Positions 22,258 to 31,064 are shown, numbered from the stretch's first letter. The stretch: 64,000 nt of DNA from Firmicutes bacterium CAG:321_26_22 (GCA_001916775.1 MNTB01000030.1:120901-184900); one strand, 5' to 3'. Numbers and translations: made by a program. The notes: generated from the sequence alone by a model not told the origin.

Positions 22258-22276
22258 CTTTTTATTTATAATTGGT

Positions 22277-22299
22277 TTATCCACAGATTATGTTGATAG
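22277..22299. repeat. PAL-D palindrome with a perfect DnaA box
   Basis: TTATCCACA-gatta-TGTTGATAG, read directly. Confidence 0.7.
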
Positions 22300-22324
22300 A
22301 ATGCTTTTCATTTTTTTATATTTA

Positions 22325-23209
22325 TTAGTTAGTTATTAAATTATTTTCTTCATTAACCTGGTTTTGTAATAATTCTAATTCTTTAATATTTTTATTGTCT
22401 CTTAATACTTTCATTTGCCTTATTGCAGAATTATTAAGTCTTATTAATCTTTCACCTTGTGGAATATTTTCTTCAATTAATTCGGCATTTGTATTTTGTA
22501 GATTATTTAATATTACTAAATGGAGTAAATCAGTATAATCTCTTATATTTCCATTTTTTGCTAGTTCAGGATTTGCTTCTCTCCACTCTTTAGCAGTCAT
22601 ACCAAATAATGCAACATTTAAAACATCTGCTTCTTCAGCATAAATATGCTTTTTTTGTTCTTCTGTAAGAGTTGGAACAATATAATTTTTTACTGCATCA
22701 GTATGAACCATATAATTTAATTTAGATAAAATTCTATTCGCACTCCAATCTAATTTGTACTGATAGGCTTCATTAGTTTTTAGTCTCTCAAATTCAGTTA
22801 TTAAATATAATTTAAATTCCGGACTTAACCAACTTGCAAATTCAAAAGCAATATCAGGATGGGCAAATGTGCCAATACTATATCTTCCACCTTTTGAAAT
22901 TATTCCTATTGCATTAGTCCTTTTTATCCATTGTGTTGGAGACATTGCAAACGAATTTCTACCATACTCCGTTTTAATTTGGTCGAATTCGACCAAATTA
23001 AAATCTTGATTATGAATTTCTTCCCATAAACCAATATAATCAATGGTACTTATCCTTCTTAACCAATTTTTCACCGTAAAAGATGGATCACTAGAATTTT
23101 GATACTTTGCCAAATCAGTTAATGAAATATAATTAACATTTCCTACCCTTAATATTCCTATTTTATTTTCTTTAACAGTGATTTCTGTTCTAACTATGTC
23201 TCTTTTCAA
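22325..23209 (-). CDS. KilA-N domain protein
   Basis: ILRVGNVNYISLTDLAKY ... TFAHPDIAFEFASWLSPEFKLYL matches KilA-N. TTG start 6 nt after AGGAGGG. Confidence 0.8.
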   Translation of the reverse strand: MKRDIVRTEITVKENKIGILRVGNVNYISLTDLAKYQNSSDPSFTVKNWLRRISTIDYIGLWEEIHNQDFNLVEFDQIKTEYGRNSFAMSPTQWIKRTNAIGIISKGGRYSIGTFAHPDIAFEFASWLSPEFKLYLITEFERLKTNEAYQYKLDWSANRILSKLNYMVHTDAVKNYIVPTLTEEQKKHIYAEEADVLNVALFGMTAKEWREANPELAKNGNIRDYTDLLHLVILNNLQNTNAELIEENIPQGERLIRLNNSAIRQMKVLRDNKNIKELELLQNQVNEENNLITN

Positions 23210-23286
23210 GTTTTTCCCTCCTAATGGTTATTATATCATACTTTATTTATTTAATATATTGTTTAAATTAAAATTTGTAATTATTC

Positions 23287-23352
23287 TATCAACAGTAGTT
23301 GTTGATATATTTTATCTTATATTTTAATTTTATCAACATATACTGTTAATAA
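23287..23352. repeat. Two PAL-D palindromes
   Basis: tatcaaca-gtagt-tgttgata (23287-23307) and ttatcaaca-tatac-tgttaataa (23330-23352). Confidence 0.7.
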
Positions 23353-23414: not shown

Positions 23415-23528
23415 CACCAAAGTGACTATAGGAACGGAGGTGAAACTTCAATAAAATAAAGGAAATATTAAATATTTACTAGTTTTTTTAGTTAAAATAT
23501 AGTAAAATATTATTTAGGAGATGATTTG

Positions 23529-26024
23529 ATGTTTAAAACACTTAAAAAATTATTTGATAATGAGTATAAAGAATTATATAGATTTAGTAAATTAGCAGAT
23601 CAAATAGATGCTCTTGATGAAGAAATGAGTAAATTATCTGATAAAAAACTTGCTAGTTATACTGATAAATTTAAGAAAAGATTAGAGGAGGGAGAAACTC
23701 TTGATGATATCTTAGTTGAGGCTTTTGCAGTTGCAAGAGAGGCTGCTTATAGATGTCTTGGAATGAAACCGTTCTACTGTCAATTACTTGGTGGCCTTGC
23801 TATTCATTATGGTAATATTGCAGAAATGAAAACAGGTGAAGGTAAAACACTTACTTGTGTACTTCCTGCTTATTTAAATGCTTTAACTGGAAAAGGTGTT
23901 CATATCGTTACAGTTAATGAATTTTTGTCTACTAGAGATTCTGAATGGATGGGGAGTATATTTAAGTTCTTAGGTCTTACTGTAGGTCTTAACTTAAGAG
24001 AACTTTCTTTTAAAGAAAAACAAGAAGCTTATAACTGTGATATTTTATATAGTACTAATAATGAACTTGGTTTTGATTACTTAAGAGATAACATGGTTGT
24101 AAAAAAAGAAAATAGAGTGCAAAGACCTCTTAACTATTGTATTGTCGATGAAGTTGACTCTATCTTAATAGATGAGGCTAGAACTCCTCTTATTATATCT
24201 GGCGGAGTTATGCAGTCTGCTAATCTATATATTGATGCTGATAGATATGTTAAAAGTTTAAAAGAAAATGAAGATTACATTATGGATGAAAAATCTAAGG
24301 CTGTTAGTTTAACTGACGAAGGCAGTAGAAAAGCTGAAGAACATTTTCATCTAGATAATTTATATGATATTAATAATACAGCTTTAGTACATCATATTAA
24401 TCAAGCACTTAAAGCAAATTATGCTATGAGTTTAGATGTTGACTACGTTGTACAAGATGGTGAAGTTGTTATCGTAGACCAATTTACTGGTAGACTTATG
24501 AAAGGTAGAGCCTTCTCTGATGGACTTCATCAGGCAATTGAAGCTAAGGAAGGTGTTAAGATTCAACAAGAAACTAAAACTCTTGCTACGATTACTTTCC
24601 AAAACTACTTTAGAATGTATAACAAGATTGCTGGTATGACAGGTACTGCGAAGACTGAAGAAGAGGAGTTTAGAAATATTTATAATATGTTTGTTATTCA
24701 AATTCCTACTAATAAACCAGTTATTAGGGAAGACGCTACTGACTTATTATATCCTGGTAAAGAAGGTAAATATAATGCTATTATTAAAGAAATAGAAAAT
24801 AGACATGCTACTGGTCAACCAGTACTTGTTGGTACTATTGCTATCGAAACTTCTGAACTACTTAGTAAAATGCTTACTAAAAAGAAGATTCCTCATGAAG
24901 TATTAAATGCTAAGAATCATGCTAGAGAGGCTGAAATTATTGCTCATGCTGGTGAAAAAGGTGCTGTTACTATTGCTACCAATATGGCTGGTCGTGGTAC
25001 CGATATTAAACTTGGTGAAGGTGTTAAAGAACTAGGTGGTTTATGTGTTATCGGTAGTGAAAGACATGAATCTAGAAGAATAGATAATCAGCTTAGAGGT
25101 AGAAGTGGTAGACAAGGAGATCCTGGTTTTACACAATTCTTTGTATCATTTGAAGATGACCTTCTTGTTAGATTCGGTTCTGATAGATATAAGGATATGC
25201 TTAAAAATCTAGGTTTTACCGGGGATATGGCTATTCAAAATAAGATGTTCTCTAAAACTGTTGAATCTGCTCAAAGAAAAGTTGAGGGTAATAACTTTGA
25301 TATAAGAAAACAACTTCTTAACTATGATGATGTTATGAATAATCAAAGAGAAATTATCTATGGTAAGAGAAATGAAATATTAGATAATGATTCTATTCAT
25401 GAAACAGTTCTTAATGGTTTTAAGGAATATATTAGTGATATTGTTAATTCACATTTAGTGGAAAGTAATAAACTAAAAGAAAATGATTATAGTGAAATAC
25501 TTGAGGCTGTAAATGAAAACTTACTTAGAAAATATAGAATTAACTTATCTGAAATTAATGGTAAACATCCTAGTGAAGTTATTGATTTGATATATGAAAA
25601 TGCTCTAAAGGATTATGAAGAAAAATTAGAAGATATTCCAGAAGAAGTTAGAGATGAGTTTGAAAAGGCTATTTCTCTTAGGGTTATTGATAATTACTGG
25701 ATGGAACATATTTCTACGATGAGTCACTTAAGAGATGGTATTGGTCTTAGAGGTTATGCTAATACTAGTCCTCTTCAGGCATATACAATGGAAGGATATC
25801 AATTATTTGATGAAATGATTGCTAAAATTAATAGGGATATTAGTATTTATCTATTAAAATCTGAAATTAGACAAAATATTGAAAGAAAACAAGTAGCAAA
25901 GACCGCTATTACAAATGATAGTAAAGATCATGCTAAGGTACAAAAGAAGAGTACTAAGGTTGGTAGAAATGACCCTTGTCCATGTGGCAGTGGTCGCAAA
26001 TATAAGCAATGTCACGGTAAATAA
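23529..26024 (+). CDS. secA: Preprotein translocase ATPase SecA
   Basis: MKTGEGKT Walker [33 protein letters not shown], and C-terminal SEC-C zinc motif [15 protein letters not shown]. Confidence 0.95.
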
Positions 26025-26107
26025 TCGCTCAAACCCTTATAAATAAAGGGATTGCGGGTTTTTCTATGATTCCACATTTTAGGTAATTTTTGGAGTGACA
26101 ACTGTCC

Positions 26108-26169
26108 TAGATACGTTTTAGATACGTTATAAAAATCTTGCAAAGCCTTATAAAATAAGGCTAAAACGC
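26108..26169 (+). repeat. TAGATACGTTT doublet followed by a hairpin related to the secA 3' flank
   Basis: tagatacgttt-tagatacgtt (26108-26128), then cttgcaaAGCCTTAtaaaaTAAGGCTaaaacgc (26137-26169). An inverted half-site aaaacgtatcta lies at 26200-26211. Confidence 0.75.
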
Positions 26170-26256
26170 ATATTCAAACTTTAATTTCAAATTACATACA
26201 AAACGTATCTAAAAAATAAAAGTTTAATGATATAATATAAATAGGAGTTGATAATT

Positions 26257-27354
26257 ATGCTAAAACCACAAAAATTGAATAAAGGAGATAAAGTTGCAAT
26301 AGTTAGTTTATCTAGAGGATTATTGGGAATGCCTTTTTGTAAACATGAGTTAGATATAGCAATTAAAAGATTAGAAGAATTTGGATTAATACCGGTTATA
26401 ATGCCAAATGCATTGAAAGATATGGATTATCTTCAAAACCATCCAGAAGCAAGGGCAAGTGATTTAAAACAGGCTTTTATGGATGATAGTATAAAAGGAA
26501 TTATTTGTGCCATTGGTGGAGATGATACATATAAAACAATTCCATACTTAATGGAAGATGAGGAATTTATAAATGCAGTTCAAAATTATCCGAAATTATT
26601 TACAGGTTTTTCTGATACAACAAACAACCACTTAATGTTAAATAAATTAGGACTCTCAACTTTCTACGGTCCTTGCTTATTAGTTGATCTAGCAGAATTA
26701 GATAAAGAGATGTTGCCATATACAAAACAATATTTTGAAAAGTTTTTTATGAATGAATCTAATTTTGAAATAGCATCAAGTCCAATATGGTATTTTGATA
26801 GAGAAAGCTATGGCACTGAAGAAGTTGGAAAACCAAGAAAATCTCAAAATGAGCAACATGGGTTTGAAGTTTTGAATGGTAAAGGAAAAATAACAGGAAA
26901 ATTATATGGTGGATGTCTAGATAGTTTATACGATATTTATACAAGTGAAAGATATGGAAATGAAAATGAAATATACACTAAATATAATATATTACCAACT
27001 TTAGATGAATGGAAAGAAAAAATACTATTTATAGAAACTTCTGAGGAAAGAATGCATCCAGATAAATTGGAACTAATATTGAACTTTTTTAAGAATAATA
27101 AAGTATTGGAAAGCGTAAGAGGTATTATTGTTGGTAAACCTATAGATGAAAAATATTATGAAGAGTATAAGCAAGTTTACAAAAAGGTTTTTGCAGATTT
27201 AGAAACGCCTATTTTGTATAATGTTAATTTTGGACATTCTGTTCCAAGATGTATAATACCATATGATGCTGAAGCAACTATAGATTTTGATAATAAAAGG
27301 ATAACTATTAACACTCCAATATTTGAAGAAACAACAATTACTAAAAAATTGTAA
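26257..27354 (+). CDS. S66-family LD-carboxypeptidase / MccF-like serine peptidase
   Basis: GDKVAIVS..., nucleophile motif FTGFSDTTN, NFGHSVP histidine motif. Extended -10 TGATATAAT at 26228-26236 and a GGAG RBS. Confidence 0.8.
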   Translation: MLKPQKLNKGDKVAIVSLSRGLLGMPFCKHELDIAIKRLEEFGLIPVIMPNALKDMDYLQNHPEARASDLKQAFMDDSIKGIICAIGGDDTYKTIPYLMEDEEFINAVQNYPKLFTGFSDTTNNHLMLNKLGLSTFYGPCLLVDLAELDKEMLPYTKQYFEKFFMNESNFEIASSPIWYFDRESYGTEEVGKPRKSQNEQHGFEVLNGKGKITGKLYGGCLDSLYDIYTSERYGNENEIYTKYNILPTLDEWKEKILFIETSEERMHPDKLELILNFFKNNKVLESVRGIIVGKPIDEKYYEEYKQVYKKVFADLETPILYNVNFGHSVPRCIIPYDAEATIDFDNKRITINTPIFEETTITKKL

Positions 27355-27376
27355 AAAATTCAACAATGGCAAATTT

Positions 27377-27400
27377 TAGATACGTTTTTAGATACGTTTT
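27377..27400 (+). repeat. TAGATACGTTTT doublet (second copy)
   Basis: tagatacgttttTAGATACGTTTT, a direct repeat of 26108-26128. Confidence 0.8.
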
Positions 27401-27547
27401 GCTAGGTTTGCCGAGTGCTACGGAGTGCTCCCAAGTGCAACCAAGTGCCGAATTAACGAGCCAAGTGCTCCCAAACGCTCCCAAAAACCCCAATACAAAA
27501 AGCCATGTGGCAGTGGTAAAAAATATAAACAATGTTGTGGTAAATAA
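27392..27547 (+). pseudogene. Start-less open frame ending in a secA-like SEC-C tail (remnant 1)
   Basis: ...YKKPCGSGKKYKQCCGK*. The 15 nt ccatgtggcagtggt are identical to the secA 3' end. There is no ATG or RBS, and the frame opens right after a TAG inside the TAGATAC doublet. Confidence 0.7.
27411..27490 (+). repeat. Eight phased 10-nt GC-rich units (consensus CCAAGTGCTC)
   Basis: ccgagtgcta cggagtgctc ccaagtgcaa ccaagtgccg aattaacgag ccaagtgctc ccaaacgctc ccaaaaaccc. The period is exactly 10 nt, which is not a multiple of 3. Confidence 0.8.
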
Positions 27548-27593
27548 ACTTGCAAACCTGCATAAAATAAGGGAAAGCGTGAGCTTTTTCTTT

Positions 27594-27654
27594 GCTAAAA
27601 AATTGCGAGTTTATATGTTCTGAACCACTTTAGATACCTTTTAGATACCTTTTT
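27594..27654 (+). repeat. Direct repeat, left copy: gctaaaaaattgcga + TAGATACCTTTT doublet
   Basis: gctaaaaaattgcgaG...tagataccttttagataccttttt. Its partner is at 29718-29773. Confidence 0.8.
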
Positions 27655-27717
27655 CCGGTATTTTTAAATAGAAAAGAATTTATTATGTTATAATATATAT
27701 GAGAGGATAGTGATTTT

Positions 27718-29532
27718 ATGTTTAATTTAGAAGATGACGATACTTTAACAATCGAATTATTAAATAAAATTATTGAAACTGATGAGCAGTATAAAGATAA
27801 TGAGTATTTAAAATACTTGATTAACAACGAGATAATAAGTGGAATAAGTTATGGAAACTTTAAAAAGATATGTGAATTTATAGGTAAAGAGGATATATAT
27901 AATGTGTACGATTATAATTTTCTCAATTTAATATGTAAAAATATGGTTCTATTATATTCTGATGTAGATGAGGAAGATATAGATGATCCAGAAGAGGTAC
28001 AACATATTGATAAAATTAAAAAATCGGTAGATTCATTTTATGAGATAATTGACTCAGGGAATTTAAATGCATTTGATAAATTAATAAATCTTCTTCTTGA
28101 AAATAATAAAAATAAAAAAGATAAAATAAAATTAATGCTTGATGTTGCTTCAAATTTTAAAAAGTATTCACAATTAGTTGATGAGATAATAAAAAAAGGA
28201 CAATTAGATTTTAGAGAAAAATATGCTGTGCTTGGATTATTAAAATTTGATACAGAGTATTATGATGATCAATATTATAAAAGTGATTATGAAGAGTACG
28301 AAAGAGATTTTTATCCTGATGATGAAGTAATAAATAATATAACTACATTAGAAGATTTAAAAAAATATACTGATGCTTGTTATGTAGTACAAATTTCTAG
28401 AATTAAGGAATTAAATGAGGATGATTATTATGGTGATGCAAATTATATGATAAAGAATGAAATCACTAAAGCATTAGCAAACATAAAGTATTTTGGAAAT
28501 GAATCACTAGATACTATTGGATTTGAAACATCTTCATTAAAAGAGCTTAGAAATAGTGTTACAGATGAAAGTATAAAAGAAGAACTATCTAAATATATTT
28601 TATTTATGAGTTTAATAGATTCCATTTTAAAAATAGATGATTTAAGAAAACTTAAAGTAATTGCAAGTAGAATATTAAATTTTAAAAAGAGTAATGATAC
28701 AATTTATACAATTTATAATTATACAGAGAATATGGCAAAAAGAATTAAAGAAATATATGCTCATGAAATAAAAGAAAAATTAATTGATTTTACAAATTTA
28801 GAAAATGGAAATAATCAATTATACTCAAGAACAAATTCTAAATTTACTGCTGATAGTAAAATGTTATATGATGAGGATATTACTGGAAGAAAAGTTGATT
28901 ATATAGAATTATCAGGAATAGATTATGTTTCACTTGTTCATGTATTAAACGCTTATGGTGAAGGTGGAACTCTAAAAGATTTCAAAACTCCAAGAATAAT
29001 TGGTAAGGAATATATTTGTTTATCTGCAATTGATGAAACAAAAGAAAAAATAGCAAAGTCAAAACAAGACGATGAAGAACATGTATGCTTATTATTTAGC
29101 AATATTGCACCAGATCAATTAATATCTGAATCTTTTGAGGATTTATATTCAGACGGAGATTTAAATAGCCTATCAATAACTTTTGGAGAAAGAGAAAATT
29201 TTAGACCGATAAAAAAGCAAATTCAATTAAATGAGGGTAGCCATACAGAGTTTGTTTTATACAGAGATTCTTCAAATGGTAATTCAATTTATCCAAGCGG
29301 TATACTTATTCAAAATGAAATGCCAACACAAGCAGAAATTAATGCAGCTGCATATTTAAATGTGCCACTTGTTTTTATAAATCATGAAAAATATAAAAAT
29401 AAGTCTAATAGTCTTGAATCTAAAAGTGATAATACTGAACCTTATAAACCAACATCTGAAGATTATAGATTATTTAGAGAAAGTCTAATGGAATTACGAG
29501 ATTCTATAAATGGAAAGGGTAAAGGTAGATAG
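27718..29532 (+). CDS. Hypothetical protein, 604 aa, acidic, no recognisable domain
   Basis: GAGAGGA RBS and a long uninterrupted ORF. I found no P-loop, nuclease or HTH motif by eye. Confidence 0.7.
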   Translation: MFNLEDDDTLTIELLNKIIETDEQYKDNEYLKYLINNEIISGISYGNFKKICEFIGKEDIYNVYDYNFLNLICKNMVLLYSDVDEEDIDDPEEVQHIDKIKKSVDSFYEIIDSGNLNAFDKLINLLLENNKNKKDKIKLMLDVASNFKKYSQLVDEIIKKGQLDFREKYAVLGLLKFDTEYYDDQYYKSDYEEYERDFYPDDEVINNITTLEDLKKYTDACYVVQISRIKELNEDDYYGDANYMIKNEITKALANIKYFGNESLDTIGFETSSLKELRNSVTDESIKEELSKYILFMSLIDSILKIDDLRKLKVIASRILNFKKSNDTIYTIYNYTENMAKRIKEIYAHEIKEKLIDFTNLENGNNQLYSRTNSKFTADSKMLYDEDITGRKVDYIELSGIDYVSLVHVLNAYGEGGTLKDFKTPRIIGKEYICLSAIDETKEKIAKSKQDDEEHVCLLFSNIAPDQLISESFEDLYSDGDLNSLSITFGERENFRPIKKQIQLNEGSHTEFVLYRDSSNGNSIYPSGILIQNEMPTQAEINAAAYLNVPLVFINHEKYKNKSNSLESKSDNTEPYKPTSEDYRLFRESLMELRDSINGKGKGR

Positions 29533-29713
29533 TGTGAATAATAAAGATAATAGTCAAGATGATTTTATATTAGCGATTAATAATCTAATAAAAGAAACTA
29601 ATTTAAATGAATTCGAAGAATTAAAAGATTCAATAGATAATATTAATTCGGAAGCAAATAAAATTATTAAGAATAGTGAAGAAAAGAATCAAGAAAAATT
29701 TGATAATAATTAG
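29510..29713 (+). CDS. Small acidic hypothetical protein (about 60-67 aa)
   Basis: ORF overlapping the end of the 604-aa gene. The start is uncertain (ATG at 29510 or GTG at 29534). Confidence 0.4.
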   Translation: MERVKVDSVNNKDNSQDDFILAINNLIKETNLNEFEELKDSIDNINSEANKIIKNSEEKNQEKFDNN

Positions 29714-29717
29714 TTTT

Positions 29718-29773
29718 GCTAAAAAATTGCGAAAAACGATTAAAAAAGTATTTTAGATACCTTTTTAGATACC
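29718..29773 (+). repeat. Direct repeat, right copy: gctaaaaaattgcga + TAGATACC doublet
   Basis: gctaaaaaattgcgaA...tagatacctttttagatacc. Confidence 0.8.
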
Positions 29774-29923
29774 TCGGGAGTAAATTCACGGGTGCTGTTG
29801 GAAGCTACCAAGTGCATTCAAGAGCAAAAAAGGACCACAAAATGCTCTCAAGAACTCCCAAAAACCTCAAATTACAAGCCTTGTGGGTCTGGTAAGAAAT
29901 ATAAGAACTGCTGTGGAAAGTAA
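29744..29923 (+). pseudogene. Start-less open frame ending in a SEC-C tail (remnant 2)
   Basis: ...ATKCIQEQKRTTKCSQELPKTSNYKPCGSGKKYKNCCGK*. Homologous to remnant 1 (ATKC...Y(K)KPCGSGKKYK.CCGK). No start codon. Confidence 0.65.
29787..29866 (+). repeat. Second array of eight phased 10-nt units
   Basis: cacgggtgct gttggaagct accaagtgca ttcaagagca aaaaaggacc acaaaatgct ctcaagaact cccaaaaacc. Same architecture as 27411-27490. Confidence 0.7.
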
Positions 29924-30047
29924 GATAAATAAATTTAATTTTGTGTCTTAAAAATAATATATTAAAAATATATAGCAAAATAGAGGTGTCACCATGAGAT
30001 AATGTGCTGGCACCTTTTAAAATAATAACTGGAGGGGGAAAATAATA

Positions 30048-31064
30048 ATGAATAATAAAGTAATTGGAAATGAAAAAAATATAATATTTTATAATGATGG
30101 AGAAGGAAATACAAAAATTGAAGTTCTTCTGCAAGATGAAGATGTTTGGTTAAATACAGAGGCATTAGCAATACTTTTTAATGTCAAAAGACCCGCTATT
30201 ACTAAACATATAAATAATATATACAACGATGGCGAACTTAGTGAAAATAGCACATGTTCCAAAATGGAACATATGGGTAATGATGGTAAACAGAGTTATA
30301 ATACAAAGTACTATAATTTAGATATGATTATTTCTATTGGATTTAGAGTTAATTCTAAGAAAGCAATTAAGTTTAGAACTTGGGCTAATAAAATAATTAA
30401 AGATTATATAATTCAAGGCTTTGCTCTAAATGATGATAGATTTATGAAAGTAAGAAAATCTGACCAAGAATATTTTAATAGATTACTAGAGAGAATTAAA
30501 TTAATTAGAACAAGTGAAAGAATGTTTTATCAAAAAATCACTGATATATTTTCAGAGTGTTCTATTGATTATGATAGGAATAGTGAGACTGCTTCTACAT
30601 TTTATAAAATTATTCAAAATAAATTTCACTATGCTATAACTGGAAAAACAGCAGCGGAAATTGTATATGATAGAGCTGATGCAAAAAAAAAGAATATGGG
30701 ACTTACTACTTGGGAAAAATCTCCTGATGGCAAGATACTTAAATCAGATATAATTATTGCTAAAAACTATTTAGCTGAAAAGGAAATTAAAGGATTAAAT
30801 AACTTAGTAAACTTATTTCTAGATATTGCAGAAAATAATGCAGAAAGAAATATTCCAATGTATATGAATGATTGGAAAAATGAAGTTGAAAATGCTTTGA
30901 AAGTTTTTCATTATGAAGCACTAGAAGGAAAAGAAAATATTTCACATAAGCAAGCAATTCAAAAAGCAACAGGTGAATATGAAAAATATAGAGTTATTCA
31001 AGATAAGAATTATATCTCTGACTTTGATAAGTTAGTTAAAGAGACTGAACAATTAGAAAAATAA
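30048..31064 (+). CDS. RhuM-family (virulence protein RhuM-like) protein
   Basis: IIFYNDGEGNTKIEVLLQDEDVWLNTEALAILFNVKRPAITKHINNIYNDGEL and YYNLDMIISIGFRVNSKKAIKFRTWA are characteristic of RhuM. GGAGGGGG RBS. Confidence 0.8.
   Translation: MNNKVIGNEKNIIFYNDGEGNTKIEVLLQDEDVWLNTEALAILFNVKRPAITKHINNIYNDGELSENSTCSKMEHMGNDGKQSYNTKYYNLDMIISIGFRVNSKKAIKFRTWANKIIKDYIIQGFALNDDRFMKVRKSDQEYFNRLLERIKLIRTSERMFYQKITDIFSECSIDYDRNSETASTFYKIIQNKFHYAITGKTAAEIVYDRADAKKKNMGLTTWEKSPDGKILKSDIIIAKNYLAEKEIKGLNNLVNLFLDIAENNAERNIPMYMNDWKNEVENALKVFHYEALEGKENISHKQAIQKATGEYEKYRVIQDKNYISDFDKLVKETEQLEK

Follow-up and report, generated by a model that had tools for sequence, protein, structure and literature searches.

A probable tandem array of small integrative cassettes at the 3' end of secA in an uncultured low-GC gut bacterium

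Introduction

A stretch of 64,000 nt from Firmicutes bacterium CAG:321_26_22 (GCA_001916775.1, MNTB01000030.1:120901-184900; hereafter called the window) raises the question why an intact secA gene is followed by two further, start-less copies of its own last codons, each placed behind a different set of genes. The source organism is an uncultured low-GC member of the gut Bacilli, known from metagenome-assembled genomes (MAGs), and the window has a GC content of 26.3%. An earlier note made from the sequence alone had read positions 26,025 to 29,923 as attR scars, left by elements that integrate into the 3' end of a gene and bring a replacement end, and had suggested repeated accretion comparable to that of cis-mobilisable elements (CIMEs). 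Both proposals are supported here, the first by an exact triad of junctions and the second by different array states and by arms of the attachment (att) type. We conclude, with a probability of roughly 0.8, that two small integrative cassettes stand here in a tandem array, formed by site-specific recombination at an attachment site in the last codons of secA. The enzymes that act on the cassettes most likely belong to a family of phage tyrosine integrases, which were found beside the same sequence motifs in other genomes.

Results

secA, its displaced ends and the parts of the cassettes

All features described in the earlier note were found, with coordinates that were exact or 1-3 nt off. The intact secA gene ends at 26024, as is clear from the sequence and from the open reading frame (ORF) call, and start-less copies of its last 15-16 codons are located at 27500-27547 and 29876-29923. 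The first of these tails reads KPCGSGKKYKQCCGK followed by a stop codon; the additional K reported earlier corresponds to 27497-27499. The 15 nt shared with secA, ccatgtggcagtggt at 25980-25994, are exactly repeated at 27503-27517, and at the nucleotide level the tails match the secA end at 61-77% over 67-77 nt. Related loci were collected by a scan for the doublet described below in one genome per species, which gave at least 120 matches; counts for these loci come from the matches listed. This likeness between tails and secA end is far beyond chance, because the same pattern recurs in at least 124-182 independent orphan tails elsewhere. In these the homology sets in abruptly at Pro-Cys-Gly; real secA genes remain homologous further upstream.

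The doublets of TAGATAC(G/C)TTTT also proved to be real. The motif has nine matches in 64 kb, as compared to 2.1 expected, and none of 100 shuffled sequences reached nine. Eight of the matches lie inside 26108-29765, and with a second half-site at 29766 they make up four direct doublets and one inverted single copy (26200-26211). Hairpins are present 3' of the secA stop codon and of the first tail, and a third, tail-less copy, which is probably vestigial, lies at 26137-26169. Cassette 1 comprises positions 26025-27502 and cassette 2 positions 27548-29878. The parts are listed below, using attB for the empty site, attL and attR for the left and right junctions, and P and P' for the arms that flank the core in the attachment site of the element (attP).

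23526-26024, plus strand: secA, from the ORF call and SecA relatives
25980-25994, plus strand: common core CCATGTGGCAGTGGT, attL of cassette 1 and crossover region, identical in the empty site of L248, attL and attR
26027-26066, plus strand: hairpin with U-run from cassette 1, part of the P' arm; fold of -9.2 kcal/mol, then UUUUU
26108-26130, plus strand: P'-arm doublet TAGATACG x2, candidate arm-type integrase sites, 83 nt after the stop codon
26137-26169, plus strand: tail-less copy of the post-stop hairpin (z -3.6), a conserved part of the chassis, kept in L003
26200-26211, minus strand: single inverted copy TAGATACGTTTT, left end of cassette 1, kept in L003
26228-26247, plus strand: extended -10 promoter TGATATAAT (26228-26236) and ribosome-binding site AGGAG (26243-26247), read from the sequence
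26257-27354, plus strand: cargo of cassette 1, S66 peptidase (LD-carboxypeptidase/MccF-like; Pfam PF02016, PF17676)
27333-27400, plus strand: start of the P arm of cassette 1, conserved ACTAAAAAATTGTAAAAAA box and TAGATACG x2 doublet (27377-27400)
27401-27499, plus strand: GC-rich P-arm spacer of cassette 1, 10-nt phasing, non-coding; same architecture in the prophage attR of L202
27503-27547, plus strand: attR of cassette 1 and attL of cassette 2, core (27503-27517) and displaced secA end KKYKQCCGK with stop codon
27549-27592, plus strand: terminator-like hairpin in the P' arm of cassette 2 (-13.1 kcal/mol, z -2.2)
27631-27653, plus strand: P'-arm doublet TAGATACC x2 of cassette 2; aligns with the prophage attL of L205 up to the integrase stop codon
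27686-27707, plus strand: extended -10 promoter TGTTATAAT (27686-27694) and ribosome-binding site (27701-27707) of cassette 2, read from the sequence
27718-29713, plus strand: cargo of cassette 2, a 604-aa protein (27718-29532) and a 67-aa ORF (29510-29713)
29716-29875, plus strand: P arm of cassette 2, TTGCTAAAAAATTGCGAAAAA box, TAGATACC x2 doublet (29754-29773) and phased spacer (29774-29875)
29879-29923, plus strand: last tail, attR of cassette 2, core variant CCTTGTGGGTCTGGT and KKYKNCCGK with stop codon

The hairpin at 26027-26066 is predicted from its fold to act as terminator for secA; it is 86% identical to the copy in L003, and its prophage homologue has a 12-bp stem (-17.5 kcal/mol). 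A consensus terminator scan of the AT-rich window called no terminator, and a consensus promoter scan gave 33 promoter-like sites versus 30 expected, which is uninformative in such DNA. Protein-family searches gave no family match for the 604-aa and 67-aa cargo proteins of cassette 2.

Insertion junctions and variation between strains

Direct evidence for insertion comes from L248, a locus of the same species without cassette 1. Its alignment with the window attL and attR yields an exact attB/attL/attR triad with the 15-bp core CCATGTGGCAGTGGT. In L248, secA runs through CCTTGT into this core and is followed by the old end AAAAAATATAAACAATGTTGTGGTAAATAA and the left arm of cassette 2; in the window, the core is followed by the end that cassette 1 brings (CGCAAATATAAGCAATGTCACGGTAAATAA) and by the cassette 1 hairpin, while the old secA end recurs unchanged 3' of the right arm of cassette 1. 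The sequences 3' of the core part at once according to origin, and therefore the crossover is inside the 15-bp core. Each tail accordingly has its coding part, and its hairpin, from the cassette downstream. The insertion was thus precise and reciprocal, with replacement of the secA end: the last 30 nt of secA (25995-26024, encoding RKYKQCHGK and the stop codon) were supplied by cassette 1, and sister strains that lack cassette 1 have the very sequence of the displaced end at 27503-27547 as their secA end (KKYKQCCGK). The ancestral secA end is represented solely by the last tail (29879-29923); together with its 3' flank this tail is 93% identical to L001, where another cassette precedes it. In every array state the secA ORF is open and ends in C-x-C-x8-C-H/C, so that the target ORF is restored.

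The C-terminal residues of SecA vary with the adjoining cassette (RKYKQCHGK at 25995-26024 of the window, KKYKQCCGK at L248:5789-5830), and the fourth zinc ligand of SecA switches between His and Cys according to cassette content, because the last residues come with the adjacent cassette.

At least four array states occur within one species. In L248-L251 and L253, secA is directly followed by the 604-aa cassette and cassette 1 is missing; in the window and L246 the S66 cassette precedes the 604-aa cassette; in L247 a 4.4-kb element with a split integrase and a SMODS gene takes this position; and in L252 it is occupied by an element that ends in an HTH_17 excisionase-like gene and a 420-aa integrase. 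L001, with about 95% nucleotide identity in the flanks, carries two quite different cassettes at the site, with breakpoints exactly at the secA stop codon and the start of the last tail. Tandem accretion and cassette-level polymorphism thus occur within the species: the strains differ by whole cassettes, and the breakpoints between them fall exactly at the 15-bp core, as the comparison proposed in the earlier note had anticipated. The exact S66 protein was found in 4 contigs, and the exact 604-aa protein in 76 blocks of public assemblies, many of the same species.

The likeness of the first tail to the current secA end of L001 was considered as a sign of shared ancestry and dropped; since the post-stop sequence of L001 differs, L248 and not L001 is the right comparison for this tail. 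Among the sister-strain elements at this site, that of L252 includes a group II intron reverse transcriptase (L252:755-1906) and that of L247 a gene pair like SMODS/CBASS (cyclic-oligonucleotide-based antiphage signalling system; L247:4003-5571). In L333 (ERZ824598 NODE_3588), a truncated 604-aa gene comes after the S66 cassette, and unrelated genes (aldo-keto reductase, short-chain dehydrogenase/reductase, LysR) come next, an order that could reflect a rearrangement or a chimeric contig.

Arm types and their integrases

The doublets occupy fixed places. Left doublets lie at +56 or +83 nt after the stop codon and right doublets mostly at -129 nt from the next tail; in cassette 1 the P-arm doublet (27377-27400) lies 129 nt before the Cys codon of the tail. 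The arm motifs (7-8 nt) found among the cassettes are TAGATACG, TAGATACC, TAGATAAG, TGTTTGCA, TGTCCAC, TGTGCAC, GGAGCCA and AGAACCA; cassette 1 has ACG-type and cassette 2 ACC-type doublets. Left and right doublets are of the same type in 60 of 76 cassettes, as compared to 21.5 +/- 3.6 for random pairing (maximum 35 in 5000 permutations), whereas the types on the two sides of a tail match in only 3 of 22 cases. Pairing within cassettes and not across tails is expected if each cassette entered as a circle with P and P' arms of a single type.

The same arrangement is found at the ends of prophages. The viral contig IMGVR_UViG_3300028833_003330 has, 3' of the secA end, a terminator with a 12-bp stem, a TAGATACC doublet and, on the opposite strand, the gene for a 376-aa tyrosine integrase, beyond which lie genes for a CI/S24 repressor, recombination proteins and a single-stranded DNA-binding protein; about 37 kb further on, another TAGATACC doublet, a GC-rich arm with 10-nt phasing and an orphan tail close the element. 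Both ends of the window cassettes align with the prophage attL and attR junctions, and on the left side the homology stops exactly at the end (stop codon) of the phage integrase gene.

Integrases of this phage type fall into clades that covary with the arm motif. Clade 1 (L205, L206, L212) occurs with TAGATACC (ACC), clade 2 (59% identical; L185, L188, L207, L213, L214) with TAGATACG (ACG), and clade 3 (51% identical; L211) with TAGATAAG (AAG). A second integrase family, about 24% identical and composed of Arm-DNA-bind_4, SAM_3 and Phage_integrase domains, is found with TGTTTGCA or TGTCCAC doublets; its genes are on the same strand as secA, some 280-310 nt before a tail. Nine loci of the doublet scans (L185, L188, L205-L207, L211-L214) have a phage-type int gene whose stop codon is separated from the core by the doublet. 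An integrase scan that did not use the doublet gave six more loci, at which 155-213 nt separate the int stop codon from a canonical secA tail, and the order of int stop, doublet and canonical or degenerate tail holds for clades of at least 50% identity. Integrase clades and arm motifs are thus physically linked and covary, and a recombinase beside the same doublets, for which the earlier note had advised a search, is present in other genomes. The closest integrases in sequenced phages are only 28-30% identical, so the phage integrase has no characterised relative. Because of their fixed distances, their pairing within cassettes and their covariation with integrase clade, the doublets are most likely arm-type integrase sites.

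Further integrase clades were seen with AGAACCA, GGAGCCA or TAGATCC doublets beside degenerate tails (L274, L263, L258, L268, L271, L257, L264, L262). Distant clades of the same phage integrase family (34-44% identity; L278, L295 and about 40 more loci) are located away from secA, adjoining a conserved GC-rich non-coding stretch 3' of a recG-like gene, with the doublets CTAGATACCA, CAACTACCA and TAGGTCAC. This stretch is probably a second attachment site, and possibly a small RNA gene.

The phased spacer

Each tail of the window is preceded by GC-rich DNA in low-GC surroundings, with a GC fraction of 0.52 before the first tail and of 0.41-0.42 before the second, against 0.263 for the window. 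The 10-nt phasing described in the earlier note was verified by autocorrelation, with z=5.6 at lag 10 for 27401-27499 and z=4.2 for 29774-29875; lag 20 was high as well, and lags 5 and 15 were low. The unit approximates GCYCCCAARR, which places A-tracts in phase with the helical repeat of DNA. The phasing is clearest in the prophage version, (GGGCAAAAAA)n/(GCCCCCAAAA)n, and the prophage attR of L202 carries the same spacer architecture; the GC-rich 10-mers are a P-arm spacer and not a separate repeat family.

Phased A-tracts are linked to intrinsic DNA curvature, and in lambda attP, bends induced by integration host factor (IHF) bridge arm and core sites. Because of this link with curvature, the spacer may form a built-in bend, by which one integrase molecule would bridge the doublet at -129 and the core, in an IHF-like role. 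Alternatively, the spacer could be an array of binding sites for an excisionase-like factor.

Arrays and cargo in other gut genomes

Among the low-GC doublet matches listed, nearly all are gut or rumen MAGs labelled Bacilli, Tenericutes, Mollicutes or Erysipelotrichaceae, and in most of them start-less secA tails lie beside the doublet; more than 100 related gut MAG loci (Bacilli/Tenericutes-like) have secA-tail arrays. The set contains at least 36 real secA ends and at least 124 orphan tails, with at least 85 distinct inter-tail segments, the cassettes, of a median length of 1.5 kb. Degenerate tails, for example those with GSGKKYKQCYF before the stop codon or GGTGTGGACAAAAATATAA, were missed by the tail pattern, and the tail and cassette counts are therefore underestimates. 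A single ORF is present in 52 of the 85 cassettes, and 128 of 130 cassette ORFs are oriented as secA is. The extended -10 motif TGNTAWAAT occurs just 5' of the first ORF in 59 of 84 cassettes (70%), as compared to 2.4% of control windows.

The 130 cargo proteins form 103 clusters. They include GNAT acetyltransferases, aminoacyl-tRNA synthetases, S66 and S51 peptidases, NUDIX proteins and methyltransferases, as well as an ABC-F protein, MmeI-type and other restriction-modification genes and a viperin. The cargo looks like a tradable toolkit against inhibitors of aminoacyl-tRNA synthetases or peptide-nucleotide antibiotics. Extra aminoacyl-tRNA synthetases are unusually common as cargo (Met, class I Lys, Trp/Tyr, His, Arg and a Thr fragment; L003, L107, L117, L274 and other loci).

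One chassis can carry different genes. The cassette of L003 is 86-91% identical to cassette 1 at both ends, sharing hairpin, doublet, promoter and ribosome-binding site on the left and box, doublet, spacer and tail on the right, and has a glycoside hydrolase (GH10) gene in place of the S66 gene; the SecA of this host is only 71% identical to that of the window. The GH10 cassette occurs in eight genomes, at differing positions in the arrays. Conversely, a counterpart of the entire S66 cassette, with 93.8% identity over 1474 nt, is present in the distant MAG L155, of which the secA 3' region otherwise does not align with the window. Whole cassettes have thus been transferred between distant hosts.

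Other variable segments near secA

A RhuM-family gene (30048-31064) directly follows the last tail and is an insertion relative to L001 of the same species (span 29935-31062), bordered by the short A/T direct repeat AAATAAAT(A)AA. Since it is not bounded by secA tails or doublets, it is a separate indel with a mechanism different from that of the cassettes. On the other side of secA, the interval between hpf and secA (22265-23300) contains a minus-strand gene with a KilA-N domain (22325-23209). This segment is swapped for unrelated sequence in L001, which makes it a second strain-variable spot.

Discussion

Proposed mechanism

Lambda-type tyrosine integrases carry an N-terminal arm-binding domain. 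In the mechanism that we propose, each cassette would once have been a circle with an attP in the order of P arm, core with replacement secA end, and P' arm. The P arm would consist of the box, a doublet of an 8-nt arm-type motif and a spacer of about 100 nt with 10-nt phasing; the middle part of the 15-bp core and the replacement secA end (about 10 codons and a stop codon); and the P' arm of the terminator hairpin and a second doublet, followed by the extended -10 promoter and one or two cargo genes. A lambda-type tyrosine integrase would recombine the cassette core with the identical sequence in secA, which would give secA a new, equivalent end and push the previous end downstream; repetition of this step would build the array. 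The cassette arms are those of temperate phages at the same site, and for this reason a phage integrase most likely acts on them. We consider it most likely that the cassettes are inserted, and possibly excised, by such an integrase in trans, or in cis beside a prophage; by the cis route, a neighbouring prophage would excise using the outer tail and carry the cassettes along. We infer that the cassettes are still mobile. Movement with or by the autonomous partner has indirect support, from strain polymorphism and from cassettes shared between species. The earlier note had left the mobilising enzyme as acting in trans or unknown. Action in trans is retained here as the probable route, whereas the second option no longer applies with a phage tyrosine integrase family as the most likely source.

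Several observations weigh against this mechanism. No tyrosine recombinase was found among the 164 ORFs of the window with a profile of 13 integrases from both families (E<=10), a screen outside which serine recombinases and transposases fell; the earlier statement that the window contains no integrase or recombinase thus holds for tyrosine recombinases, and the cognate integrase of neither cassette is encoded there. Sequences joining P, core and P' had 0 matches in viral contigs, and of 24 such junctions in metagenomes none had an adjacent phage integrase or a contig with circular overlap; these searches thus yielded neither a free attP nor an excised circle. The binding of integrases to the doublets is deduced from position and covariation, and whereas the second integrase family matches Arm-DNA-bind_4 above threshold, the phage family scores 19.8 bits against a Pfam threshold of 22.3 bits. 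The ends of 16 of the 76 cassettes are mismatched, which suggests fusions or other rearrangements. The mechanism also does not account for the entry of cargo into a chassis. Finally, most comparison loci were picked by the doublet itself, which biases the motif census, and all data are metagenome assemblies.

Alternative explanations

Given these points, the cassettes might be immobile scars, left over when a full prophage or integrative element lost its interior by deletion. Their arms are homologous to prophage attL and attR, neither an integrase in the window nor circles were found, and some array integrase genes are split (L003, L247). We nevertheless regard this as unlikely, for the cassettes are without phage gene fragments and the phage homology ends exactly at the integrase stop codon. 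Decay would also have to yield a uniform, compact build with its own promoter, mostly a single gene and almost always one orientation, and to place different cargo in one chassis. An intact cassette at 94% identity in distant hosts, and the recent, strain-specific gain seen from the distribution of the S66 and 604-aa proteins, likewise speak for the insertion of integrative cassettes.

Unidirectional arrays of small and very diverse cassettes could also be the product of an integron-like host platform, in which a dedicated chromosomal integrase captures promoterless cassettes via folded, single-stranded attC-type sites. This is very improbable: there is no integrase beside secA in the window, the integrases found elsewhere are of the arm-binding phage type and score 57-65 bits against the TIGR02249 cut-off of 265, the sites consist of a core, a coding tail and asymmetric arms and are not imperfect palindromes, and 70% of the cassettes have their own promoter.

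Hardly credible is the reading in which the tails are small genes for SEC-C-motif peptides (GTG-started ORFs at 27425-27547 and 29792-29923), or the GC-rich stretches structured RNAs. The window does have open frames of 40 and 43 codons, and GC-rich islands in AT-rich genomes often mark RNAs. However, in 115 of 182 orphan tails the open frame extends over fewer than 20 codons upstream, and stop codons interrupt 50 of 77 TAGATAC-type arms; the peptide ORFs were rejected on account of these stop codons in homologous arms, which, together with a 10-nt period that cannot keep a reading frame, make the spacer non-coding. Other arm families are AT-rich and without an ORF, and since an Rfam scan of the whole window gave no match, a known RNA is excluded as explanation. 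The least credible proposal, that ordinary dispersed intergenic repeats (REP-, BOX- or MITE-like) lie near secA by chance, has in its favour that the short repeats are present in many related genomes, but these are confined to the array in the window, keep fixed distances from the tails and are paired by type within cassettes, and insertion is exact at the core.

Significance

Beyond the two cassettes of the window, we tentatively suggest, at somewhat less than even odds, that secA-tail arrays are a phage-driven analogue of integrons in low-GC gut Bacilli. A chassis would be loaded with almost any gene, cassettes would be shuffled in trans within compatibility groups set by arm type, they would move between species with prophages, and the spacer would serve as a bend. 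If this is true, cassettes would be individually excised, re-inserted and shuffled by temperate-phage integrases, with the arm specificities (ACC, ACG, AAG and others) as compatibility groups; they would be exchangeable morons that cross species when a neighbouring prophage excises with them, and the 10-nt phased GC/A-tract spacer would stand in for a host bending protein.

Literature searches gave no description of secA as an attachment site, and thus no earlier account of the SecA zinc-finger tail as an integration hot spot. Compact cargo cassettes without integrase appear to feed much of the strain-level gene variation in uncultured gut bacteria, and the cargo range suggests an exchangeable resistance and defence toolkit. 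The pairs of integrase clade and arm motif constitute an orthogonal att/Int set for tests of arm recognition, and possibly for genome engineering, and the locus is a concrete system for the generation and mobilisation of cassettes outside classical integrons.

Comparison with known systems

Phage satellites of the PICI (phage-inducible chromosomal island) or SaPI (Staphylococcus aureus pathogenicity island) type have their own integrase, regulation, replication and packaging-hijack genes. The secA cassettes, mostly single-gene with metabolic, resistance or defence cargo, lack this gene set. With integrons the secA arrays share unidirectional arrays of small, diverse cassettes at one chromosomal site made by a tyrosine recombinase; unlike integrons, they have no IntI, attI, Pc or palindromic attC, the cassettes carry arms, a terminator and their own promoter, and the recombinase is supplied by mobile elements.

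Islands in tRNA and tmRNA genes arise by lambda-type integration at the 3' end with a replacement end (Islander, PMC4383910). They resemble the secA arrays in the attL/attR/attB core, the restored target, the displaced fragment that marks the end, the arm repeats and the position of int beside att. In secA, however, the target is protein-coding, about 10 codons are replaced and the last residues of SecA vary with the neighbour, and the P arm contains a 10-nt phased GC/A-tract spacer. Parallels of a looser kind exist in other systems. In Dehalococcoides, copies of the ssrA 3' end delimit tandem, strain-variable islands (PMC3146451), which are larger, usually have their own integrase and target a tmRNA gene. 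The tycheposons of Prochlorococcus carry their own integrase in 910 of 937 cases and target tRNA genes (10.1101/2020.12.28.424599, preprint). They are also small, cargo-carrying integrative elements that form variable islands by repeated site-specific insertion, and differ from the secA cassettes in their own integrase, often replication genes, and tRNA targets. In tandems of a phage and an integrative and conjugative element (ICE), the phage integrase excises a composite accreted at a single att site (PMC13651849). The partner there is a full ICE and not a set of integrase-less single-gene cassettes.

A close parallel is provided by CIMEs, which together with ICESt1 and ICESt3 accrete site-specifically at the 3' end of fda in Streptococcus thermophilus. 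Like CIMEs, the secA cassettes are bounded by att sites, occupy the 3' end of a housekeeping gene in tandem and have no genes for recombination or transfer, and mobilisation by a partner integrase has been proposed; in the window, the arms are those of an autonomous element and the cargo consists of the S66, 604-aa and 67-aa proteins. Accretion of CIMEs and ICEs has been reviewed (PMC5704250). Unlike CIMEs, the secA elements have as partners a temperate phage and a second integrase family, and their target is the SecA zinc-finger tail; they are only 0.7-3 kb long, mostly single-gene, and built on a standard chassis with its own promoter; and the arrays, known from sequence alone, are deep (at least five tails per 8 kb) and extend over more than 100 species-level MAGs. 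What is new relative to CIME-type accretion is therefore the target, the partner, the compactness and standardisation of the cassettes, the phased spacer, and the depth and spread of the arrays.

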